A stretch of DNA of 24,000 bases. Source: Candidatus Deferrimicrobium sp. (lineage in GTDB: Archaea > Asgardarchaeota > Lokiarchaeia > Helarchaeales > HEL-GB-A). The DNA lies in NCBI GenBank assembly GCA_035531115.1, contig DATKTP010000243.1, positions 23,433-47,432 on the forward strand, read 5' to 3'. Shown here piece by piece: positions 5,104-23,780 of this stretch (within the stretch, counting starts at the first letter, position 1; every line of letters starts with the position of its first letter). A model generated the notes under the pieces. It was given only the letters and a program-made list of their open reading frames with translations. It did not search any database and had not been told where the DNA came from. The position numbers were made by a program, and so were the translations under genes.

Positions 5104-6324
5104 TTACTTTTTAGATTTTGTTAAAAACTTCCGATAACTATTATTATATAGGACTTCAGCTTCTGAATCGTTTAATTTATTCGATAGTTTCGCTGCCCTT
5201 TTATATAATTGAGCGGCTGCAAGATACATACCTTCAGCAGCACGACTTCGTGCTTCCTTAAGAACCATGGCACGTTCGTCTTCGAGATTTTGTTTTTCAA
5301 TTTCGTATGAAGGAGTTTTTGGTATTGCATAACGGGTATAATAGATAAGAACAATTATTCCGATTATTGCAATTAAACTTATTATAAGAATGAAAATAAT
5401 GGATAAATTTGGAATTTCGATAGTTAATGTCCAGTGAATTAGATTTAGCCAGAGACGTAAATTATCAACACTATCAATCCAGTGGACGCCCGTATAATCA
5501 TAACTCCCTGTATCTGTAACATTCAGATCACTAAACATGACAGTTGAACCGCACAACACAATTCGAGCTGAACCTTGTTGAATAGCAAATAACCAGGGAG
5601 TTGAATAAATTATTGATTCATTATATTCTAAATAAGAATTGGAATATCCCGTTGAAATTATACCGCTTTCCTGTGTGACATTTAATCCAGAGGTAAATGT
5701 CAAAATATTTTTTAGTTTATACTTAATTGGATGGAATAATTTAAAATTGGTTTTCGCAATTTCAACTACCTCGCGCTTTCCAATGGGAGTATGGTCAGTT
5801 CCATTATGGTGTAAATCATACTGAGTGAATAATGCAGGAATACTCAGTGCTTGAGTAATATTGTTTAAATAATCAGCATGACCTGTTATATTTTCATCAG
5901 GTACGGGGACACTCACATCATTATAGTTACAAAGAAGGATCAAATTTCCCCCAAGTTCTGTATAATTTTTAAGTAAATCTATTTCAGTTATCGAAAAATT
6001 GCCGTCAGGTCCAGGATTCCCGATAATAATAAGGTCGTAATACAACATTTTTGTTAAATTTTCAAATTCCGCCTTATTTAAATAGACTTTACAATCATTC
6101 GTTTGATTAAGGTACGATAATGCGGTTTTAAAACGAGTATTTGAGTAGGTATAATATTGATCATGTGCCTCATCAAAAAGAATTGAAAAAGGACTTGAAG
6201 AAGAAGTGGCTTTCACATTTGCTAAAAAGAACTGGGTACAAAATAAAGTTATCAAAGTAATGACCATAAGGCTTAAAGCCGCTTTTTTGTAATACGAATT
6301 TAGTTTCAAGATCCAGAACCTCAA
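5104..6324 (-). CDS. Type-I membrane protein with an extracytoplasmic DUF4350-like (GATase1-like) domain, many N-glycosylation sequons and a helical cytosolic tail
   Basis: It has an N-terminal hydrophobic signal or anchor (AALSLMVITLITLFCTQFFLANVKA). ILFDEAHDQ...DLIIIGNPG...GGNLILLCN...ARIVLCGSTVMFSD...DNLRLWLNLIHW matches the DUF4350 pattern. A C-terminal TM (LSIIFILIISLIAIIGIIVLIYY) is followed by a tail of about 75 aa. The TTG start is uncertain. Confidence 0.7.
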   Translation of the reverse strand: MRFWILKLNSYYKKAALSLMVITLITLFCTQFFLANVKATSSSSPFSILFDEAHDQYYTYSNTRFKTALSYLNQTNDCKVYLNKAEFENLTKMLYYDLIIIGNPGPDGNFSITEIDLLKNYTELGGNLILLCNYNDVSVPVPDENITGHADYLNNITQALSIPALFTQYDLHHNGTDHTPIGKREVVEIAKTNFKLFHPIKYKLKNILTFTSGLNVTQESGIISTGYSNSYLEYNESIIYSTPWLFAIQQGSARIVLCGSTVMFSDLNVTDTGSYDYTGVHWIDSVDNLRLWLNLIHWTLTIEIPNLSIIFILIISLIAIIGIIVLIYYTRYAIPKTPSYEIEKQNLEDERAMVLKEARSRAAEGMYLAAAQLYKRAAKLSNKLNDSEAEVLYNNSYRKFLTKSKK

Positions 6325-12200: not shown

Positions 12201-14924
12201 TCATTTTAATTGAGTAGTAAGTGAATTAAAAAGGGCTTCAATTTGTTGTATATCGGGTTGTTTTGGGGTAGTAACAACGAAAACAATGAGGGATTGAGTT
12301 GATTCAATTATTTTTGCGATCGAAAAAGCGATTTTAAATCCTTCTTTTGAAATGAGAAATACTGGTAAATCAGTATCAGAAATTATTTTGTCAATAACCC
12401 ATCCTTTTTGAAGAAGTGCATCTTGGATATGAGTTATTATAAGGGATGGAGTTTCGGAAAGAGTTTTGATGAAAATTTTTTCATGCAAATTAGAAGACCC
12501 GACGGGATAAAGATGTTTTCGATATTTATAAAGAAGTAGGCGTTTCATATAATCTTCAAGTTGATTTTTAGGAAGATTAATTTCGAAAAAAGGAGTTTTA
12601 GATTCACTAAGATCTTGAACTTTCATATCATCTTGTAATGGTGATGATGGGGAACTTGGAGGCAGTGTAATAAAGGTGGTCTCATCGGAGGGCTTTTCAG
12701 GAGAGCTGGGTGTTAAACTAGAAAGGTCAGGTATTTCAGGAACATCAGGGCGTATAATAATTGGTCTATCCATTTGATCTATAATTTTCGGAAGGCTTTC
12801 TCTACCTGCATGTTGGCTGATCCGTGGACGGATGCGAGCAACAAAGATGCGATTTGTCGTGATTGATTCATCGGCAATCACGCATACCCCTACTGGAAGA
12901 CTACGGAAAAAGGCAGCATCGTTTACTTCATGGGGGACATTACCAGGGGCACGATGAACAAAAGAATCTATATCTGAGGAGTACGTGAGAAAATGGCAAA
13001 AAGATTTGTCTAATTGGGAAAGAATTTGTACATTGGTTGCACTCGGTTGTTGAGTACAAAGAACTAATCCGCACCCTGGTTTTCGGCCTAATTTTGCATA
13101 TTGGACAAGGGGTTCTGATGCCGCTGTATTTCCACGTGCTGGTGCGAGAAGATGGGCTTCATCAATGAGAATCCAAGTTATTGGAATACTCTCAATTGCT
13201 TCACCCTCATCGATAGAAATTTTAGCAGCTTCAACTTGGCGGGATATTTGAAGCCGAGCACGAAGCACTTTTCGTGCGAGAATTCCAGTAATTAATGCAT
13301 GAAGATTTTGGTCGAGCACGCTCACATCTACAATTGATATTTGATTGGGTCTTGACAATTCAATAAGGGGTGTTCCTTCATCTGAAAAAATACCCCATTC
13401 TTTGGCAATTTCAAATCGCGAGACCATAGCCCTTCGGGTTTGACGTGTAAAGCCCTTATCCTTGTCGGTAACAAATGTAGAGGTGTTCATACAACGAATT
13501 ATATCTTCGAGAGAATACTTATCCCCTTTTCCTTTCACTTTTACTATAGAATCTTTCAATTCGGCTTGAAATCCTTCCTGAACTAATTTAATCGTTTTTT
13601 CAATAAGGATACCACGTGGACTAAACCGACTGACATCGAAAACATAACACCAATCATCAACACTTAACTCTGAGGGTCTAATGGAGAAGGATTCATCTTT
13701 TGTTTCCTTAGGTGTTAAATTAAAGTGCCCTAAGGGAACAAATACTTTTACATTTTCTTGAAAAGATTTTGGTTCTAGATTCCATTTTTCTAGAATTTTA
13801 CGTTCTTTTTCCTCCCAATTTGCGTATTTCATACTCCAATAAACGCCAAGGGGATCCAGGATAATAACTCCAATACCTATCTGCGCCGTAGCTAGTTCTT
13901 CGGCAATAACACCCATCGTATAACTTTTACCACTTCCACGATGCCCCGATATAAAAATTACATGAGGTTGAGTACAATCAAGTAAGAGTGTTCGACCATA
14001 GTGCCCTAATCCGTGAGCAGGGCGTTCCGAAATTTTCCCAATGTTAAGAGTCCCCTTCAAGCCAATTTTCCGATGCAACCCTTCAGAACGCCCAATTACA
14101 ACAGCTCCGGTCTCATTATCAACCAATAATTTTAAATGTTCTTTAATATGGGGGGTAAAGGTATTGAAAATTTCCTCATCCCAGATTTTCGTCTCTCCGA
14201 GAACATAAGCTAACGCCAGATGAATGGTTTCAAAATCTGAGACTTCATTCTCAAGAAGTAGATCAACTTTAGCCTTGCAAAATCGACGAAATTCCGGCGT
14301 ATTGGGATATTGATCCGGTTGAAAGTCCGAGACTTCCCAAATATAGTAATCGAGGCTATCACCTTTCGAGAGGTTTTCTTTCGGTATAATCAGTTCATAA
14401 GCTTGAGTGAGGATTGCTTCATCTCGGGTTATAAGATAACAAATGGTCAAGCACTTTATCTTTTCAATGCCCGTAACGTTATTTAAATTTTCTAAAAGCT
14501 GTATCCTATATTTTTCTTCTTTGGTCTTCTCCAATGCTTGATAGAGAATAATTGAACTGCCAGGACTGGGGGATTCCTCTTCATATACATGATTAAAGAG
14601 GACATCTGGAATTCTTTTTAGAAAGGGAAATTCTTCAATTCGTAAGGTGGCAATCATAGCATGTTGAAGCTTATTCGCCGAGATCGGATCCTCTCGTAAT
14701 AATTTAATAAGCCAATCTTCAATATCCACATCAGGTAAAATCTCCTTGATTAATTTTAAAATGGTATCTCTCAAATTCTGCAGATGCTGAATATCACTCA
14801 CTAAATTATATTGTAATATATAAATATCCAATAATAGAATTTGTTCTTTTAGTGATTTGGGAACAAGATCCCGAACTTTATTAAAAACTTTGATGATATC
14901 GTTATGTTCTATCACATAATTCAC
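12201..14924 (-). CDS. HerA/FtsK-superfamily (DUF87-type) P-loop ATPase with a unique N-terminal helical domain (about 270 aa) and a C-terminal linker plus alpha/beta domain (about 180 aa)
   Basis: Walker A is HVIFISGHRGSGKSYTMGVIAEEL (nt 13923-13946). Walker B is ITWILIDEAHLLAP (nt 13152-13175). GCGLVLCTQQPSATN, SRFSPRG and RIRPRISQHAGRE are typical of HerA-like DUF87 ATPases. No TM segments were seen. Confidence 0.8.
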   Translation of the reverse strand: MNYVIEHNDIIKVFNKVRDLVPKSLKEQILLLDIYILQYNLVSDIQHLQNLRDTILKLIKEILPDVDIEDWLIKLLREDPISANKLQHAMIATLRIEEFPFLKRIPDVLFNHVYEEESPSPGSSIILYQALEKTKEEKYRIQLLENLNNVTGIEKIKCLTICYLITRDEAILTQAYELIIPKENLSKGDSLDYYIWEVSDFQPDQYPNTPEFRRFCKAKVDLLLENEVSDFETIHLALAYVLGETKIWDEEIFNTFTPHIKEHLKLLVDNETGAVVIGRSEGLHRKIGLKGTLNIGKISERPAHGLGHYGRTLLLDCTQPHVIFISGHRGSGKSYTMGVIAEELATAQIGIGVIILDPLGVYWSMKYANWEEKERKILEKWNLEPKSFQENVKVFVPLGHFNLTPKETKDESFSIRPSELSVDDWCYVFDVSRFSPRGILIEKTIKLVQEGFQAELKDSIVKVKGKGDKYSLEDIIRCMNTSTFVTDKDKGFTRQTRRAMVSRFEIAKEWGIFSDEGTPLIELSRPNQISIVDVSVLDQNLHALITGILARKVLRARLQISRQVEAAKISIDEGEAIESIPITWILIDEAHLLAPARGNTAASEPLVQYAKLGRKPGCGLVLCTQQPSATNVQILSQLDKSFCHFLTYSSDIDSFVHRAPGNVPHEVNDAAFFRSLPVGVCVIADESITTNRIFVARIRPRISQHAGRESLPKIIDQMDRPIIIRPDVPEIPDLSSLTPSSPEKPSDETTFITLPPSSPSSPLQDDMKVQDLSESKTPFFEINLPKNQLEDYMKRLLLYKYRKHLYPVGSSNLHEKIFIKTLSETPSLIITHIQDALLQKGWVIDKIISDTDLPVFLISKEGFKIAFSIAKIIESTQSLIVFVVTTPKQPDIQQIEALFNSLTTQLK

Positions 14925-17036: not shown

Positions 17037-17507
17037 CTATAAGGGAGTTGGAAAAATTCCTAATGTTTTTAGTTTCTGATATGCATTTGTAAATTTAGAC
17101 ATAATGTTTTCTTCCTGAATGAACGCTGAAATGTTATATCCCTTCTTTTCTAGCAGAATTTTAAATTTAAAAATATCAGAAATGAGAAATTTAAGTTGTT
17201 CATTATAGATTTGAGCATCAATCTTCCCGAGTTGGTAATTTGAGATGATGGTATCGAGGGTTGCAATGCTAGCATAGAATTCTGCTTGAGCATGTTCTAA
17301 AGTATGGGCTTCAACTTCTGCTTCGGTGATCCTAATGGGAATTTCTAATGGAGGCGGGTTTGATTGATTTTTCACGGTTGTTTGTAAAATATTTTTAACG
17401 GTTTGTGTCTGCTGGACAACTTTTCGGTTTAATTTAGTGATTTCTGCTTCTAATTCGTCGATTGACTTTTCATCCATTTCATTTTTGGGTTTATTTTTTT
17501 GGATCAT
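17037..17507 (-). CDS. ESCRT-I subunit Vps28-like (N-terminal core domain only)
   Basis: 156 aa. AQAEFYASIATLDTIISNYQLGKIDAQIYNEQLKFLISDIFKFKILLEKKGYNISAFIQEENIMSKFTNAYQKLK aligns by eye to the human VPS28 core [75 protein letters not shown]. Its start is 9 nt after the upstream Vps23-like stop. Confidence 0.7.
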   Translation of the reverse strand: MIQKNKPKNEMDEKSIDELEAEITKLNRKVVQQTQTVKNILQTTVKNQSNPPPLEIPIRITEAEVEAHTLEHAQAEFYASIATLDTIISNYQLGKIDAQIYNEQLKFLISDIFKFKILLEKKGYNISAFIQEENIMSKFTNAYQKLKTLGIFPTPL

Positions 17508-17516
17508 AATGGAAAA

Positions 17517-18419
17517 TCACTGAGTAATACCCATTTCTTTCAATTTCTGATTAATCAAATGTAATTCTTTTTGATAATTTTTGTAGAGCTGTGCGTATTC
17601 CGTAGAATTGATTTCACCACATTCGAATTTATCTTCCAAAGTCCGGATTAAATCCTCTACAGCAATTTTTTCACTTTGAAGATCGAGAATTTGTTTATCT
17701 CTCGGATTTTGAGGAAGTAAGATTTCAGCAATTCTATCACCAAGCCTTGGAACGTTATGAACATCCATACGCCCTTCAAGGCGCGCGACTTCCTCCGTCT
17801 TATTAACCAAGGATTTCTGTAAGGATTGAAGTTCATCCTCTAACATGTCAATTTGTGTCTTTAACTCCTTTACCTTCGGGGTTTCCTCTGGGATTTCTGA
17901 GGAAAACGGGGTAGAAGTCTCAGCTGAAGGTTGTTCTGATTTAATGGGAGGAGCGGGAGAAGGAGCTTGTGGTATAACAGGTAATTGTGTCTGAAATGGG
18001 GTGGGTGGAGCTTGTTCTAGCTGGTTCGGAACTTCTTCTTGGGGAGAAGTTAATGTAGATGCGAAAGTATCCGGTAACTTTGGCGAAATTCTAGCAAAGA
18101 TGCCTTTTATTGAATTTATGACCTGATAGAGATGGTATTCAGAACGCCAATAGGTTATTATTCGCAAATTTAACTCACCAGATCTAGGATCTACCTGTGG
18201 ATGATCAGTGGGAGTAACCATTATGACTTTAGGAGCTTGCCGAGGAAAATCGGAAGGGATTAGAATTTCAACTTCAAATTGAATATTTTCATAAGGTCCG
18301 CGTCCAGGAATGGAGCCCCGCCATTTAGTTAAATTTCCTGCTACTGGCTCGAATTCTCGTGCCCGTCTATACATAAGTTGGGCTTCTCTGGCGAGGATAA
18401 ATTCAAACTGGGAACTCAT
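17517..18419 (-). CDS. ESCRT-I subunit Vps23/TSG101-like: UEV (catalytically dead E2-fold) domain, Pro-rich linker, coiled-coil stalk, steadiness-box-like C-terminus
   Basis: The E2-like N-terminus is FEPVAGNLTKWRGSIPG...FEVEILIPSDFPRQAPKV...HPQVDPRSGELNL, where Leu/Asn replaces the active-site Cys. The P-rich segment spans aa 112-181. The C-terminus AVEDLIRTLEDKFECGEINSTEYAQLYKNYQKELHLINQKL resembles the TSG101 steadiness box AIEDTIFYLGEALRRGVIDLDVFLKHVRLLSRKQFQLRALMQK. I prefer the ATG at 18419 (TGGAGG 10 nt upstream) over the TTG at 18443 in the track. Confidence 0.8.
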   Translation of the reverse strand: MSSQFEFILAREAQLMYRRAREFEPVAGNLTKWRGSIPGRGPYENIQFEVEILIPSDFPRQAPKVIMVTPTDHPQVDPRSGELNLRIITYWRSEYHLYQVINSIKGIFARISPKLPDTFASTLTSPQEEVPNQLEQAPPTPFQTQLPVIPQAPSPAPPIKSEQPSAETSTPFSSEIPEETPKVKELKTQIDMLEDELQSLQKSLVNKTEEVARLEGRMDVHNVPRLGDRIAEILLPQNPRDKQILDLQSEKIAVEDLIRTLEDKFECGEINSTEYAQLYKNYQKELHLINQKLKEMGITQ

Positions 18420-18534
18420 AGGATAGTGCCTCCAAAGATACAAATCAATTGAAATCTTAAATAAAGTAGTAAATGCTTTCCTTTAATATTTTCTATTAAT
18501 TTTAGTCCCTATAAAATATTGAGGATTGAGGATT

Positions 18535-18945
18535 TTAAGTATCAGAGAGTTTTTTTACCACTTGAGTTATTCGGTCTTGGAAGACGCGCACTGATCCAAT
18601 AAAATCAATAATTAATTTTGATAAGTCACTTATTTTTTCCAATTGAGCGTTTTCTCTTTCATCAAGGCGCTTATTTAATACATTGATACTCTCTTTAACT
18701 GCTTCAAAAGAAATAATTTCTTCAGATATTAATTTTCTCAAACTTTTCAATTCTTTTTCGATTGTATGCAATTGTTTATACACCTCATTATTTACAGTTT
18801 CTTGTGTACGAATCATATCGGCATTGAGTATATTCATTGCTTCACAGATCTGTTTTAAACTAGCTAAAGTTGGAACGTCACCTAATGGAGTTTTAATTGC
18901 CTCAATTTTAATATCTATTTTTTTCTCGTCTGCGTCGCCAACCAT
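18535..18945 (-). CDS. Coiled-coil protein of unknown function (candidate additional ESCRT-I stalk subunit)
   Basis: 136-aa ORF with an ATG start, predominantly heptad-like helical sequence. It is co-directional with, and upstream of, the Vps23-like and Vps28-like genes. No family was recognised. Confidence 0.55.
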   Translation of the reverse strand: MVGDADEKKIDIKIEAIKTPLGDVPTLASLKQICEAMNILNADMIRTQETVNNEVYKQLHTIEKELKSLRKLISEEIISFEAVKESINVLNKRLDERENAQLEKISDLSKLIIDFIGSVRVFQDRITQVVKKLSDT

Positions 18946-19590: not shown

Positions 19591-19827
19591 ATGATTCTAA
19601 AAATCGTGTCTGCAATTGGGGGGGATGTGATCGAACTCAATACACCCCCAACTACAACAATTTCTGAGATTAAAAGGGAAATTAGCCGAAGAAAACGAAT
19701 TCCAGAAGGAATTTTTGTTCTCGCTTTCAGGGGTACTGAAATAAGAAATGAAAATCTATCTTTGTTAGATATAGGGGCTTCTGACTACGACAAGATTTAT
19801 TTAATCACCCGAACGGAAGGTGGGTAA
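19591..19827 (+). CDS. Ubiquitin-like beta-grasp protein ending in Gly-Gly-stop
   Basis: 78 aa. TISEIKREISRRKRIP aligns to ubiquitin TIENVKAKIQDKEGIP, and VLAFRGTEI aligns to RLIFAGKQL. The C-terminus ...LITRTEGG is followed directly by TAA. A GGAGG Shine-Dalgarno sits at 19576-19580. Confidence 0.85.
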   Translation: MILKIVSAIGGDVIELNTPPTTTISEIKREISRRKRIPEGIFVLAFRGTEIRNENLSLLDIGASDYDKIYLITRTEGG

Positions 19828-19959: not shown

Positions 19960-20445
19960 ATGGTAACCAAGATGTTAAGTGAGGAAGATTACTATAATAG
20001 GTTAGTGTATGAAGCGAAAATATTAGAAGAGGAAGAGCCGTCGTTCAAACCAGTGGCAGGAGATCTAAGAGTTTGGAACGGATTTATTTTAGGAACAGGG
20101 CTTTATGATGGGGGAGTCTTTGAAATTCAATTAACTTTAACGAGGAAGTTCCCATACGAACCTCCAAAAATCAGATGGATAACTAAAACATATCATCCCA
20201 ACATTTCATTGCAAAGTAAAATTTGTGTTGGAATACTTGGAAAAGATTGGGTTCCAACTATGAGTGTTGCAGGTGTGATAGAAACACTCAGAAATTTATT
20301 AAGTTTTCCCAATCCCGCCTCGCCATTGAATACTGAGGCAGCAAATCTCCTGAAAAAAGATAAAAATAGATATGAAATGGAAGTTAAGAAATATGTAGAA
20401 AAATACGCAACTTGGGAAAATTTAAGAAAAACCCAAACGATGTAA
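19960..20445 (+). CDS. E2 ubiquitin-conjugating enzyme (UBC fold, active)
   Basis: It has the canonical motif YHPNISLQSKICVGILGKDWVPTMSV, with HPN at aa 79-81 and the catalytic Cys89 at nt 20224-20226. The downstream SFPNPASPLNTEAA motif is also present. Confidence 0.9.
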   Translation: MVTKMLSEEDYYNRLVYEAKILEEEEPSFKPVAGDLRVWNGFILGTGLYDGGVFEIQLTLTRKFPYEPPKIRWITKTYHPNISLQSKICVGILGKDWVPTMSVAGVIETLRNLLSFPNPASPLNTEAANLLKKDKNRYEMEVKKYVEKYATWENLRKTQTM

Positions 20446-20454
20446 GGGGGTTTT

Positions 20455-21732
20455 TTGGGTATAACAACAAAAAATAAGAATCAGGTTAAGGAAGTTCAGG
20501 TTCAGGGAGAATTAGAAAGATATAGCAGACAAATGCTTTTAAAGAATTGGAATCAAGAGAAATTATTGAATTCTACTGTTTTTATTGCAGGAGTTGGGGC
20601 TCTTGGGACGATCATTGCGTTAAATCTTGCGATGATGGGTGTGGGACACTTAATTTTATGTGATTTTGATACCATAGAGCTCTCGAATTTAGCGCGCCAG
20701 GTACTCTTTGAGAATAAAGATATTGGTAAATCAAAAGTTGTAACGGCAAAGGAAGCTCTTGAGCGAATCAATCCTACAATTAAAATTACCGCTATCAATA
20801 AGCAGTTGGAAACGATTAATCATAAGATTATTGAAGCATGTGATATAGTAGCAGATGGTTTGGATACATTTGAAGCACGAAGATGGCTCAACTCCGTTTG
20901 TATCACACTAAATAAGCCCTTAGTACATGGTGGTATGTTTGGATGGATGGGAAATGTACAGGTCGTTATTCCATTTAAAAGACCCTGTTTAGAATGCCAT
21001 CCACTCATCCCTCAAGAGCGCCTTCAAAAACCTTGTACCCCGCCAGGGGATGCGCGAAAAGAGTTAGAAGCAGAGGAAAAAGAAGAAAAAATTCCAACAC
21101 TAGCTACGGTTTCTACGATTATAGCTGGAATTCAATCACAAGAAATCATTAAGTTACTTATAGGATCCGATAAAATCTTGGATGAATTTCTTTTTTATGA
21201 TGGCCAATCGGAGACAATAACAAGAATGCCACTCATTCTTAATCCAAATTGCATTGTCTGCGGAAAATACCGGTTAGAGGGGATAGATTTCGCAATAGAT
21301 AACGAAGATACTATTCGCGATATAAAAAATAGGTTAATAATGTCTTGGGGTTTAAAAGAACCAATGCGGGTTGTTATTAAAGGTGTAATCCAAGAAGATA
21401 ATATAAAAATTCATGATTTAAAACTCAAAGAAAGAGAAGCGATTTTTGTATATGATAAAATTCTTTCAAAACCCTTAAAACTATATACGGTCTTAAAAGG
21501 AGCTGAGTTTATTCCAGAAGTTTCTGTCATAGCTCCGAAAAAAGAAGTTAAACCAGGTTCCAAATGGTCAAAAATGCATGAACTCGCTGTAGATGTGGGG
21601 AAAGTAACCTATCAAAAAAATCTTTTGCAAATTCAAGCAACCGATGCGGAGACCCCTATTCGATTCTTTCAGACAACGTCAATCTCAAAAATGAAGAAGA
21701 AAATAAGATATAAGTTAAAGGAAAGTAAATAA
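20455..21732 (+). CDS. E1-like ubiquitin-activating enzyme (ThiF/MoeB/UBA adenylation domain) with a C-terminal extension of about 150 aa
   Basis: RYSRQMLL...VFIAGVGALGTIIALNLAMMGVGHLILCDFDTIELSNLARQ is the Rossmann/ATP-binding signature. Two CxxC pairs are present (C178/C181 and C266/C269), with a candidate catalytic Cys194 in KPCTPPG. It has a TTG start 9 nt after the E2 stop, preceded by AAGGGGG. Confidence 0.9.
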   Translation: MGITTKNKNQVKEVQVQGELERYSRQMLLKNWNQEKLLNSTVFIAGVGALGTIIALNLAMMGVGHLILCDFDTIELSNLARQVLFENKDIGKSKVVTAKEALERINPTIKITAINKQLETINHKIIEACDIVADGLDTFEARRWLNSVCITLNKPLVHGGMFGWMGNVQVVIPFKRPCLECHPLIPQERLQKPCTPPGDARKELEAEEKEEKIPTLATVSTIIAGIQSQEIIKLLIGSDKILDEFLFYDGQSETITRMPLILNPNCIVCGKYRLEGIDFAIDNEDTIRDIKNRLIMSWGLKEPMRVVIKGVIQEDNIKIHDLKLKEREAIFVYDKILSKPLKLYTVLKGAEFIPEVSVIAPKKEVKPGSKWSKMHELAVDVGKVTYQKNLLQIQATDAETPIRFFQTTSISKMKKKIRYKLKESK

Positions 21733-21778: not shown

Positions 21779-22609
21779 ATGTATGAAAAACATAAAATAC
21801 CTTATTTTGTACAAAAGAAGATGGAAGAGGGCGGTCCATCGAAAGAAATTTTCCGAGGCAGAATCCTCTTTGATCAATCACGGGAAAAGGATAAATGGCT
21901 TAATGAACATCATTCAGAATTTTTACTATTATTAACGAGTAATGGGTATTCCATCAGTAAAATAACGGAAGGTCCAATTAATTATGCCAATATGAAAGAT
22001 TTTGATATTCTCGTTTTATCCGCAATCCGAACCGGTTCTATGGATTTCAATGCAGTTGAAATTCGATCTATTGCGCAATTTGTGAGTGATGGGCGGGGAT
22101 TATTTCTAATTGGTAATGAATATATTGGGAAAGAGAAGAATTTCAACTATCTATTCAATCAATTATTTGGAATTTCTTTTAGTGATCAAGTATTAGATAA
22201 AGAAAATAATGCAAATCCGGCAGCAGGATGGAGCCATAGCCCGATTATTAGTATTTTTGTCGATCATAAAATAACTAAACAACTTGAAGAAATTGTTCTT
22301 CGAGATGGCTCTGGGTTAAATTTAACAAAATCTTCAGAACCTCTTGCTTTCTCTGCTCCAACAGCAGAACCTGCCTGCGTGCCTGTCATTGGAGCGACAG
22401 AATATGGAAAAGGAAAAGTAATTGCAATTGGCGGGGACGGTATTTTTACAAATGACCCTAGAATCGGTATTAATGCCCGGGATAATGAGCAATTCATTTT
22501 AAACGCATTGGATTGGATGCCATCTTGGACGGATTGTCCACAATGTGGAAGTGGAGTGCCGCCTGCTGAATCACTATGTCCTCGTTGTAAAACACGCGTT
22601 CTACGGTAA
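21779..22609 (+). CDS. Cytosolic DUF4350-like (GATase1-like fold) protein with a C-terminal zinc ribbon
   Basis: ILFDQSREKD...FDILVLSAIRTG...FVSDGRGLFLIGNEY...GKVIAIGGDGIFTND...DNEQFILNALDWM parallels the ectodomain of the 5104-6324 protein. The C-terminal CPQCG-x9-CPRCK motif (nt 22535-22606) is a zinc ribbon. No signal peptide or TM was seen. It lies 46 nt downstream of the E1 gene on the same strand. Confidence 0.65.
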   Translation: MYEKHKIPYFVQKKMEEGGPSKEIFRGRILFDQSREKDKWLNEHHSEFLLLLTSNGYSISKITEGPINYANMKDFDILVLSAIRTGSMDFNAVEIRSIAQFVSDGRGLFLIGNEYIGKEKNFNYLFNQLFGISFSDQVLDKENNANPAAGWSHSPIISIFVDHKITKQLEEIVLRDGSGLNLTKSSEPLAFSAPTAEPACVPVIGATEYGKGKVIAIGGDGIFTNDPRIGINARDNEQFILNALDWMPSWTDCPQCGSGVPPAESLCPRCKTRVLR

Positions 22610-22616
22610 AGGTTGC

Positions 22617-23000
22617 TTAAGAACCTTCATCTACCTTTACTACTTCATCCTTTAAATTCTGAGCGAATAATCTGAGCATCCCTAAAGGAATTTTATTGAC
22701 CTTCGAAGAAAGAATCGCATAACTGATATCATTATTTACGGGACCCACCATTAAAAAGAAATTTTCGGATTCAAATATCTGATTGATGAAATTTGCTTTA
22801 TCCATATGCAAATCTTTTAAAGCACGCTCTCCTGCATCGATTAATCGATTTGCGGAACCCCAAATGCCTTCTGAATCATTTAATCCACATGTTTGCTCTG
22901 CAATTTTTAGTCCATCATTATTTAAAAGCATTACACTCCCGGCACTCATCTTCCGGATTACATTAGTTAGAATGCGATCAAATACTTTTGATTTATGCAT
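22617..23000 (-). CDS. Roadblock/LC7 (MglB-like) domain protein
   Basis: 127 aa with an alpha-beta-alpha-beta-beta-alpha pattern: FDRILTNVIRKMS / GSVMLLNNDGLKIAEQ / GSANRLIDAGERALKDL / INQIFESENFFLMVGPVNNDISYAILSS. This is typical of the Roadblock/LC7 family. Confidence 0.65.
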   Translation of the reverse strand: MHKSKVFDRILTNVIRKMSAGSVMLLNNDGLKIAEQTCGLNDSEGIWGSANRLIDAGERALKDLHMDKANFINQIFESENFFLMVGPVNNDISYAILSSKVNKIPLGMLRLFAQNLKDEVVKVDEGS

Positions 23001-23177: not shown

Positions 23178-23780
23178 ATGTCTGAAATAAAAATTTTTAA
23201 TGAATGGGACATTAGCGGAGTCGAAATTAAAGATTTAGGACTACAGCAATACTTGAAATTAACCCCCCATATTAGTTGCCACACACATGGTCGGCATGAA
23301 CATAAACGCTTTCATAAATCACAAGTAAATATTGTCGAGCGCTTTATTAATCGTTTACTTTCGCCAGGCGCGTCTCGTAAGAAAAATGGGGGACGCCAGA
23401 CAGGAACCATCTCTGGAAAAAAAGCAAAAACAATTAATTTGATTAAAAATGTATTTAAGATTATTAATCTCAAAACCCATCAAAATCCAGTTCAAATCTT
23501 GATGAATGCTGTTGTCAATTCTGCCCCTCGCGAAGAAACTACCCGTATAAGTTATGGTGGAATAAATTACCAGCAAAGTGTCGATGTCGCGCCACAACGC
23601 CGGGTTGACCTCTCCTTAAAATTTCTGGTCGAAGCATGTTGGCGTAAAAGCTTCAATACGATTTCAACCATCGAAGAAATAATTGCAAATGAACTAATCT
23701 TGGCTGCAAACAATGATTCTAAAAGTTCCGCTGTAAAAAGGAAAGAAGAAAAAGAAAGAATTGCAGCCTCTGCTCGATAG
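23178..23780 (+). CDS. rps7: 30S ribosomal protein uS7
   Basis: 200 aa. It has the archaeal/eukaryotic-type uS7 N-terminus KIFNEWDISGVEIKDLGLQQYL and the conserved NAVVNSAPREETTRISYGGINYQQSVDVAPQRRVDLSLKFL and KKEEKERIAASAR segments. Confidence 0.9.
   Translation: MSEIKIFNEWDISGVEIKDLGLQQYLKLTPHISCHTHGRHEHKRFHKSQVNIVERFINRLLSPGASRKKNGGRQTGTISGKKAKTINLIKNVFKIINLKTHQNPVQILMNAVVNSAPREETTRISYGGINYQQSVDVAPQRRVDLSLKFLVEACWRKSFNTISTIEEIIANELILAANNDSKSSAVKRKEEKERIAASAR

Follow-up and report, generated by a model that had tools for sequence, protein, structure and literature searches.

Background

Did the minimal ubiquitin cascade of an archaeon come with a dedicated accessory adaptor? The question is raised by an uncharacterized gene that directly follows ubiquitin, E2 and E1 in a genome of the archaeal order Helarchaeales, and which we analysed within a window of 24,000 nucleotides (the whole stretch of DNA considered here). 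The surrounding locus is the known Asgard ubiquitin-ESCRT gene cluster (PMC9192718; bioRxiv 10.1101/2023.07.25.550441; PMC10936438). Its helarchaeote form is one of the rare Asgard systems to have been reconstituted in vitro. The conserved gene within it has apparently been passed over: term searches of these three reports found no mention of the gene or of GIFT domains, literature searches combining Asgard with IFT52 or GIFT (some supplements were covered in part) returned nothing, and we could not find an earlier description of a protein with this architecture and context.

A preliminary description, made from the letters alone, had read the product as a DUF4350-like protein with a zinc ribbon, closing a ubiquitin operon where a deubiquitinase might be expected. 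Here we report that its domain is better named GIFT (GldG/IFT52/OST48), that it is probably non-catalytic, and that the conserved unit is the pair it forms with E1; that it acts in the ubiquitin pathway is plausible, though unproven.

The gene and its surroundings

The features of the window referred to below are as follows (coordinates, strand, identity).

21779..22609, +: gene under study, encoding a GIFT domain and a C4 zinc ribbon (276-aa soluble protein)
21788..21808, +: K-x-K-[LI]-P-x-F (residues 4-10), motif conserved in the N-terminal arm, which has low pLDDT
21851..22528, +: GIFT domain (IFT52-N/OST48-like, class I GATase-like fold), residues ~25-250, from Foldseek, structural Z and profile
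22100..22123, +: LFLIGNEY, residues 108-115, strand and turn equivalent to the nucleophile elbow, from alignment and model
22376..22378, +: codon of C200, the sole conserved Cys outside the zinc ribbon (14/15; Ala in one orthologue)
22535..22588, +: zinc ribbon C-x2-C-x10-C-x2-C with four invariant Cys, lacking the NZF TF motif
20455..21732, +: ubiquitin E1 (ThiF and C-terminal ubiquitin-like domain), constant upstream neighbour of the GIFT gene
19960..20445, +: ubiquitin E2
19591..19827, +: ubiquitin, ending directly in Gly-Gly, with no pro-peptide in this genome
19106..19351, +: small RING E3
17517..18443, -: UEV-Vps23 (ESCRT-I) with steadiness box
22617..23000, -: Roadblock/LC7-like gene, convergent with the GIFT gene and missing at this position in family f2
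23178..23780, +: rpS7, first gene of a conserved translation-gene block, used as synteny control

The reading frame, its start 46 nt past the E1 stop and the run of ubiquitin, E2 and E1 upstream on the same strand all stand as originally described. Further upstream of ubiquitin lie the small RING, UEV-Vps23, Vps4 and two Snf7 genes; downstream come the convergent Roadblock-like gene and then rpS7. The frame is a real gene on which purifying selection acts (pN 0.14-0.19 against pS 0.75-0.81), with a pN slightly below that of E1 (0.17-0.21), and its named close homologues are from Helarchaeota. A cytosolic location had been proposed, and we likewise find neither a signal nor a transmembrane segment (maximal 19-residue hydropathy 1.06; first 45 residues -0.58). 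A scan for sigma-70 promoters and terminators, a model unsuited to archaea, stayed at chance level.

Several neighbours deserve mention in their own right. A 907-aa HerA/DUF87 ATPase (12201-14924, -) sits between the two Snf7 genes; it is conserved in family f1 and also adjoins Snf7 in family f23 (L086, L087). Between RING and UEV-Vps23 lies a coiled-coil gene (18535-18945, -) that is conserved across many Asgard lineages and probably corresponds to an uncharacterised group of the UEV-Vps23 preprint, asCOG005522. The Vps28-like frame at 17037-17507 has a weak ARPC4 match (E 0.024). The E1 carries a basic C-terminal extension of ~70 aa past its ubiquitin-like domain (about 21510-21732), present in families f1 and f2 and absent from f31 and most other Asgard E1s.

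A GIFT domain resembling that of IFT52

The DUF4350 label did not hold: the protein scores 26.2 bits against PF14258, below the gathering cut-off of 30.4, and structure and profile searches lead instead to the GIFT domain of the ciliary transport protein IFT52. The AlphaFold model (pLDDT 82, pTM 0.82; pLDDT <50 at residues 1-23) has the N-terminal GIFT domain of IFT52 as its best Foldseek match (5fmr, E 3.8e-14), the top six matches all being IFT52, and a VIA comparison with IFT52-N (5fms) gave a Z of 23.0 with rmsd 2.4 over 209 aligned residues. Structural Z falls to 18.8 for OST48, 15.5 for GldG and 13 or less for true GATases (HisH, PdxT and GMP synthase, ~10-13). A profile of the homologue alignment (A1) likewise found IFT52 as the best PDB match (E 4.5e-8), and among 20 alignment members Pfam matched PF09822 in 19, OST48_N in seven and PF23355 in five. 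In the ESM Atlas, a feature search returned GIFT/DUF4350 clusters only, at 0.90 or below, and a fold search ranked Asgard IFT52_GIFT clusters first.

The likeness to IFT52-N extends to a cytosolic location and to missing catalytic residues in both, and there are also clear differences. Identity to IFT52 is 16-20%, and the protein itself falls below the PF23355 cut-off; IFT52 continues into a linker and a C-terminal IFT46-binding domain, whereas the helarchaeal protein ends at residue 276 in a zinc ribbon and so lacks the architecture expected of an IFT52 orthologue. Archaea are not known to have cilia or IFT partners. OST48/Wbp1 and GldG have GIFT domains of the same fold, which are non-catalytic subunits of larger complexes (PMC7226087); these proteins are luminal or extracytoplasmic and membrane-anchored, unlike the soluble protein described here. 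IFT52-N itself lacks catalytic residues, apparently binds no sugar and acts as a protein-binding surface (PMC4818760).

In the low-confidence N-terminal arm that precedes the domain, K6 and P8 are the same in all 15 orthologues, which come from three families, and on this sequence pattern its K-x-K-[LI]-P-x-F may be a candidate linear interaction motif.

Absence of the GATase/DJ-1 triad

The core fold is shared with class I glutamine amidotransferases and DJ-1/PfpI hydrolases, the equipment of which is lacking here. The preliminary description had noted that the elbow has no Cys and that the domain might be non-catalytic, and both points were borne out, the latter as probable: within LFLIGNEY, G112-N113-[EQ] occurs in 15/15 orthologues and Cys in none, and no GATase/DJ-1 triad is present. 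The His-x-Glu that class I GATases have near the C-terminal strand was not found in the 15 orthologues; the region reads GGDGIF. The only invariant His (H163, 15/15) belongs to a family-wide motif, and the position of C200 is a variable small residue in paralogues.

The suggestion that the gene fills the slot of a deubiquitinase is not supported either by what the genome encodes elsewhere. Six JAMM-motif proteins, one of them Rpn11-like, are present in this genome, JAB matches occur in 7/7 Helarchaeales species, and Rpn11/JAMM is the demonstrated archaeal maturase and deubiquitinase (PMC5654768). The protein is not itself a JAMM/MPN+ enzyme, a class marked by an MPN fold with E..HxH-x7-S-x2-D: its fold differs, and the JAB search that finds the six other loci does not find this gene. 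Ubiquitin of the window ends in Gly-Gly and so needs no trimming, and the GIFT gene is kept anyway. Most Helarchaeales ubiquitins do carry C-terminal extensions, ranging within the one order from none to ~14 residues (window 19591-19827 compared with L031, L040, L047, L061 and L068), and the L047 extension is that of the Hel_GB_B locus studied in vitro.

A generic zinc ribbon

The CPQCG-x9-CPRCK ribbon was found as described, spanning C253-C270, with C253, C256, C267 and C270 invariant. Its C-x2-C-x10-C-x2-C spacing, with a preceding Trp, is shared with the NZF fingers of Npl4, Vps36 and TAB2. Ubiquitin-binding NZFs are defined, however, by a Thr-Phe/Tyr motif after the second Cys and a hydrophobic residue in the second CxxC (PMC11372445). 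A TF or TY motif occurs in none of the 15 orthologues, where these positions read GS, GD, EL, QF, NI and others; the third NZF contact position is mostly Arg or Gln, the invariant W250 lies one residue further from the first Cys than the NZF Trp, and the NZF Asn is present in family f2 members only. Pfam sees generic DZR and Zn_Ribbon_1 in the ribbon, with weak Zn_ribbon_RanBP matches in 3/20 alignment members (best E 0.005), and overall it is nearer to Zn_Ribbon_1/DZR and archaeal eL40 ribbons than to an NZF. The earlier proposal of an NZF-type ubiquitin binder is not supported, the TF motif being absent, and since the same Cys spacing recurs in 61 open reading frames of this genome, the ribbon alone says little.

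Conservation of the E1-GIFT pair

The orthologue is single-copy in 7/7 Helarchaeales species, and searching 154 further genomes of the class yielded none; an exhaustive profile search for the E1-linked clade returned two full-length representatives and a single fragment, and no more. In the tree the orthologues form one clade (100/100), the sub-clades of which match the three families f1, f2 and f31. We conclude that the gene is single-copy and has been vertically inherited beside E1 since the ancestor of the order.

It stands directly after E1 and in the same orientation in 19 of 21 distinct loci (f1 14/14, f2 4/4, f31 1/3), with spacers of -4 to about 225 nt, and is always <2 kb from E1; the 21 loci are related, so that these counts are descriptive and neither independent nor statistical. 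In all four f2 loci ubiquitin and E2 are inverted or displaced and the E1-GIFT pair is kept, from which it follows that the conserved unit is this pair and not a four-gene operon. In Hel_GB_B the gene overlaps E1 by 4 nt. The operon as first drawn exists in the family of the window only, ubiquitin and E2 having the opposite orientation in f2, and the supposed linkage to ubiquitin genes is conserved, in Helarchaeales only and specifically to E1. One locus in which unrelated genes precede E1-GIFT (L038) may be chimeric and was left out as evidence of joint movement. In another (G301; L032:638-1917) E1 is split into two open reading frames, by a real break or an assembly error, with the GIFT gene intact.

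Both exceptions to the pairing are f31 loci. In G305 a 484-aa frame on the opposite strand, named from its sequence as a glycosyltransferase-like membrane protein, lies between the two genes, and in GCA_011365055.1 an inversion has moved the GIFT gene to just ahead of truB, 1.8 kb from E1 and pointing towards it. In the latter and a second assembly the gene is cut from E1 and precedes truB, co-oriented with it, by 5-14 nt. Moreover, the synteny control showed that rpS7 and EF1A stay near the GIFT gene about as faithfully as E1 does; rpS7, EF1A, truB and SecY are nearby in nearly all loci.

Linkage beyond the order, which the preliminary description had named as a check, did not emerge: the orthologue is missing from all 26 E1 neighbourhoods taken from other Asgard families. 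A wider association between E1 and any GIFT gene was likewise rejected, only one of these 26 loci (G038) having a GIFT gene within the 3-20 kb covered. Among genomes tested, a full-length E1 orthologue and the GIFT gene both occur, within the class, only in Helarchaeales, and the same type of E1 occurs without the GIFT gene across other Asgard classes. In other Asgard families E1 is usually followed by a convergent Yip1, in which an N-terminal zinc ribbon is frequent (L081:8010-8762, L086:7641-8426, L088:9103-9861, L093:8172-8873, L094:7529-8152).

Related GIFT proteins in Asgard archaea

GIFT matches occur in 216/301 Asgard genomes. This genome alone has at least seven other soluble GIFT paralogues or fragments, one of which also ends in a zinc ribbon, and no ubiquitin genes were recognised near several of them. 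A second, weak IFT52_GIFT-like protein is encoded within the window (5104-6324, -; E 1.7e-5), with a hydrophobic N-terminus; its gene is divergent from PolD DP2, as it is in G305 (L046).

Most Asgard genomes hold members of a separate paralogue clade (99/98), in which the GIFT domain is followed by a low-complexity linker, then a coiled coil and in many cases a C-terminal hairpin (L003, L010, L020, L082 and L108-L114; C147:16359-17696 in this genome). IFT52 is the only GATase-like chain that its profile matches (E 1e-25), and the clade has an invariant Cys and a SHAGGD-like motif, both missing from the E1-linked clade. In a profile-profile comparison of motif-selected segments (hhalign), the paralogue tail matched the Vps23 steadiness box with a probability of 95% and E 2.5e-8, against <2% for shuffles and 0.8% for a Snf7 control. 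Single-sequence HMM matches are weak (best E 5.5e-4), and the Pfam and PDB families listed for the tail are generic coiled-coil, GvpG, CdvA and SHOCT, with Vps23_core not among them; we therefore call the tail only steadiness-box-like. No such hairpin was found in the E1-linked protein. Two Jordarchaeia-type loci have the paralogue 5-7 kb away from E1 or Vps23, unlike the other loci examined; its neighbours are lineage-specific and mostly unrelated to ESCRT. A convergent neighbour of the paralogue in Jordarchaeia-type genomes is an ARPC4-like gene (Pfam E 3e-7; L082:14390-14965, L108:7272-8042). We regard this paralogue as a candidate alternative ESCRT-I subunit or IFT52 forerunner.

A natural fusion of GIFT, zinc ribbon and Asgard small RING also exists, as a singleton (P0153; L128:478-1383, GCA_016294945.1). 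It was considered as a fused ancestor and rejected, the tree giving no supported sister position to the E1-linked clade, and it counts for less because Asgard RINGs fuse promiscuously, with 11 RING fusions in this genome. These relatives hint that Asgard GIFT domains serve ubiquitin and ESCRT proteins, which is no proof for the E1-linked gene.

Possible functions of the GIFT protein

Based on these observations, we suggest, with a probability that we put at roughly 0.45, that Helarchaeales have here a cytosolic adaptor specific to their lineage, one that is non-catalytic and serves the ubiquitin-ESCRT locus as an accessory. The gene would usually be co-transcribed with E1, and by analogy with IFT52-N the product may bridge protein partners, most plausibly recruiting a substrate or an ESCRT-I component to the small RING E3 and E2, or else tuning the timing of the cascade; it would be dispensable for ubiquitin activation or transfer. 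This adaptor reading is supported by the IFT52-N fold and its known use as a protein-binding surface, by a single-copy gene more conserved than E1 that keeps its place after E1 through the f2 inversions, and by the RING and steadiness-box-like modules of related GIFT proteins. It is weakened by the f31 breaks, by the presence of rpS7 and EF1A nearby about as regularly as E1, by the lack of the gene at E1 in other Asgard families, by the singleton status and unsupported position of P0153, and by the report that the Hel_GB_B cascade ubiquitinates UEV-Vps23 in vitro with no GIFT protein present (bioRxiv 10.1101/2023.07.25.550441). A predicted complex of E1 (14-352) with the GIFT protein (24-276) scored 0.06 (mark 0.32) and weighs neither way.

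The main rival is a passenger gene. Its product would be a non-catalytic scaffold of the GIFT type working outside the ubiquitin pathway, for example in translation or RNA modification; the gene would have come to lie between E1 and rpS7 in the ancestor of Helarchaeales and been kept there by slow rearrangement of the super-cluster. We consider this a real possibility. The translation genes and SecY near almost every copy fit it well, as do the two assemblies in which the gene has left E1 for truB, the GIFT paralogues (one with its own zinc ribbon) that sit apart from recognised ubiquitin genes, and a cascade that works without the protein. A mere bystander is harder to reconcile with an E1-GIFT junction, overlapping in one case, that outlasts inversions breaking Ub-E2-E1, with retention of the gene in f2 loci that have no neighbouring Roadblock gene, and with relatives in which GIFT is joined to RING or steadiness-box-like modules. 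The tight coupling of the gene to E1, co-oriented and in one case overlapping, and the joint restriction of both genes to Helarchaeales within the class, might also suggest an obligate non-catalytic E1 subunit analogous to NAE1 or SAE1 of heterodimeric E1s; we hold this to be very improbable, given that E1s of the same type do without the gene in other classes, that the Hel_GB_B E1 works alone in vitro (bioRxiv 10.1101/2023.07.25.550441) and that in two f31 loci the genes have come apart.

Other readings assign the protein a direct contact with ubiquitin. As a receptor it would bind ubiquitin through the ribbon, in NZF fashion or non-canonically, and couple it to a partner through the GIFT domain, and the RanBP2/NZF spacing, invariant W250, f2 Asn and few weak RanBP matches are in keeping with this; the absent TF motif, a third contact that is mostly Arg or Gln, the offset Trp and the commonness of the ribbon type make it improbable all the same. 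Deubiquitinase activity is unlikely, and the broader notion of a deubiquitinase or other hydrolase, or of a carrier accepting a thioester on C200, is very improbable. It can draw on the hydrolase fold, on the retention of C200 and H163 and on the ubiquitin extensions that need trimming in most of the order, and it meets an elbow with no Cys, no His-x-Glu after the last strands, an orthologue with Ala for C200, an H163 that belongs to a family-wide motif, and JAMM proteins already at hand for the work.

Implications

A bolder reading would make cytosolic IFT52-like GIFT domains an unrecognised module of ubiquitin-ESCRT trafficking in Asgard archaea, in which the Helarchaeales protein would adapt a substrate or partner to E1, E2 and RING, and the widespread paralogue would be both an alternative subunit of ESCRT-I and a forerunner, in archaea, of IFT52 in the ciliary IFT-B core; we think this rather unlikely. 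Should the gene be only a passenger, it would be an ordinary lineage-specific GIFT paralogue. Should the adaptor reading hold, a minimal archaeal ubiquitin cascade would have had a dedicated accessory adaptor. A soluble IFT52-like family across most Asgard lineages bears on the origin of the ciliary IFT-B core.
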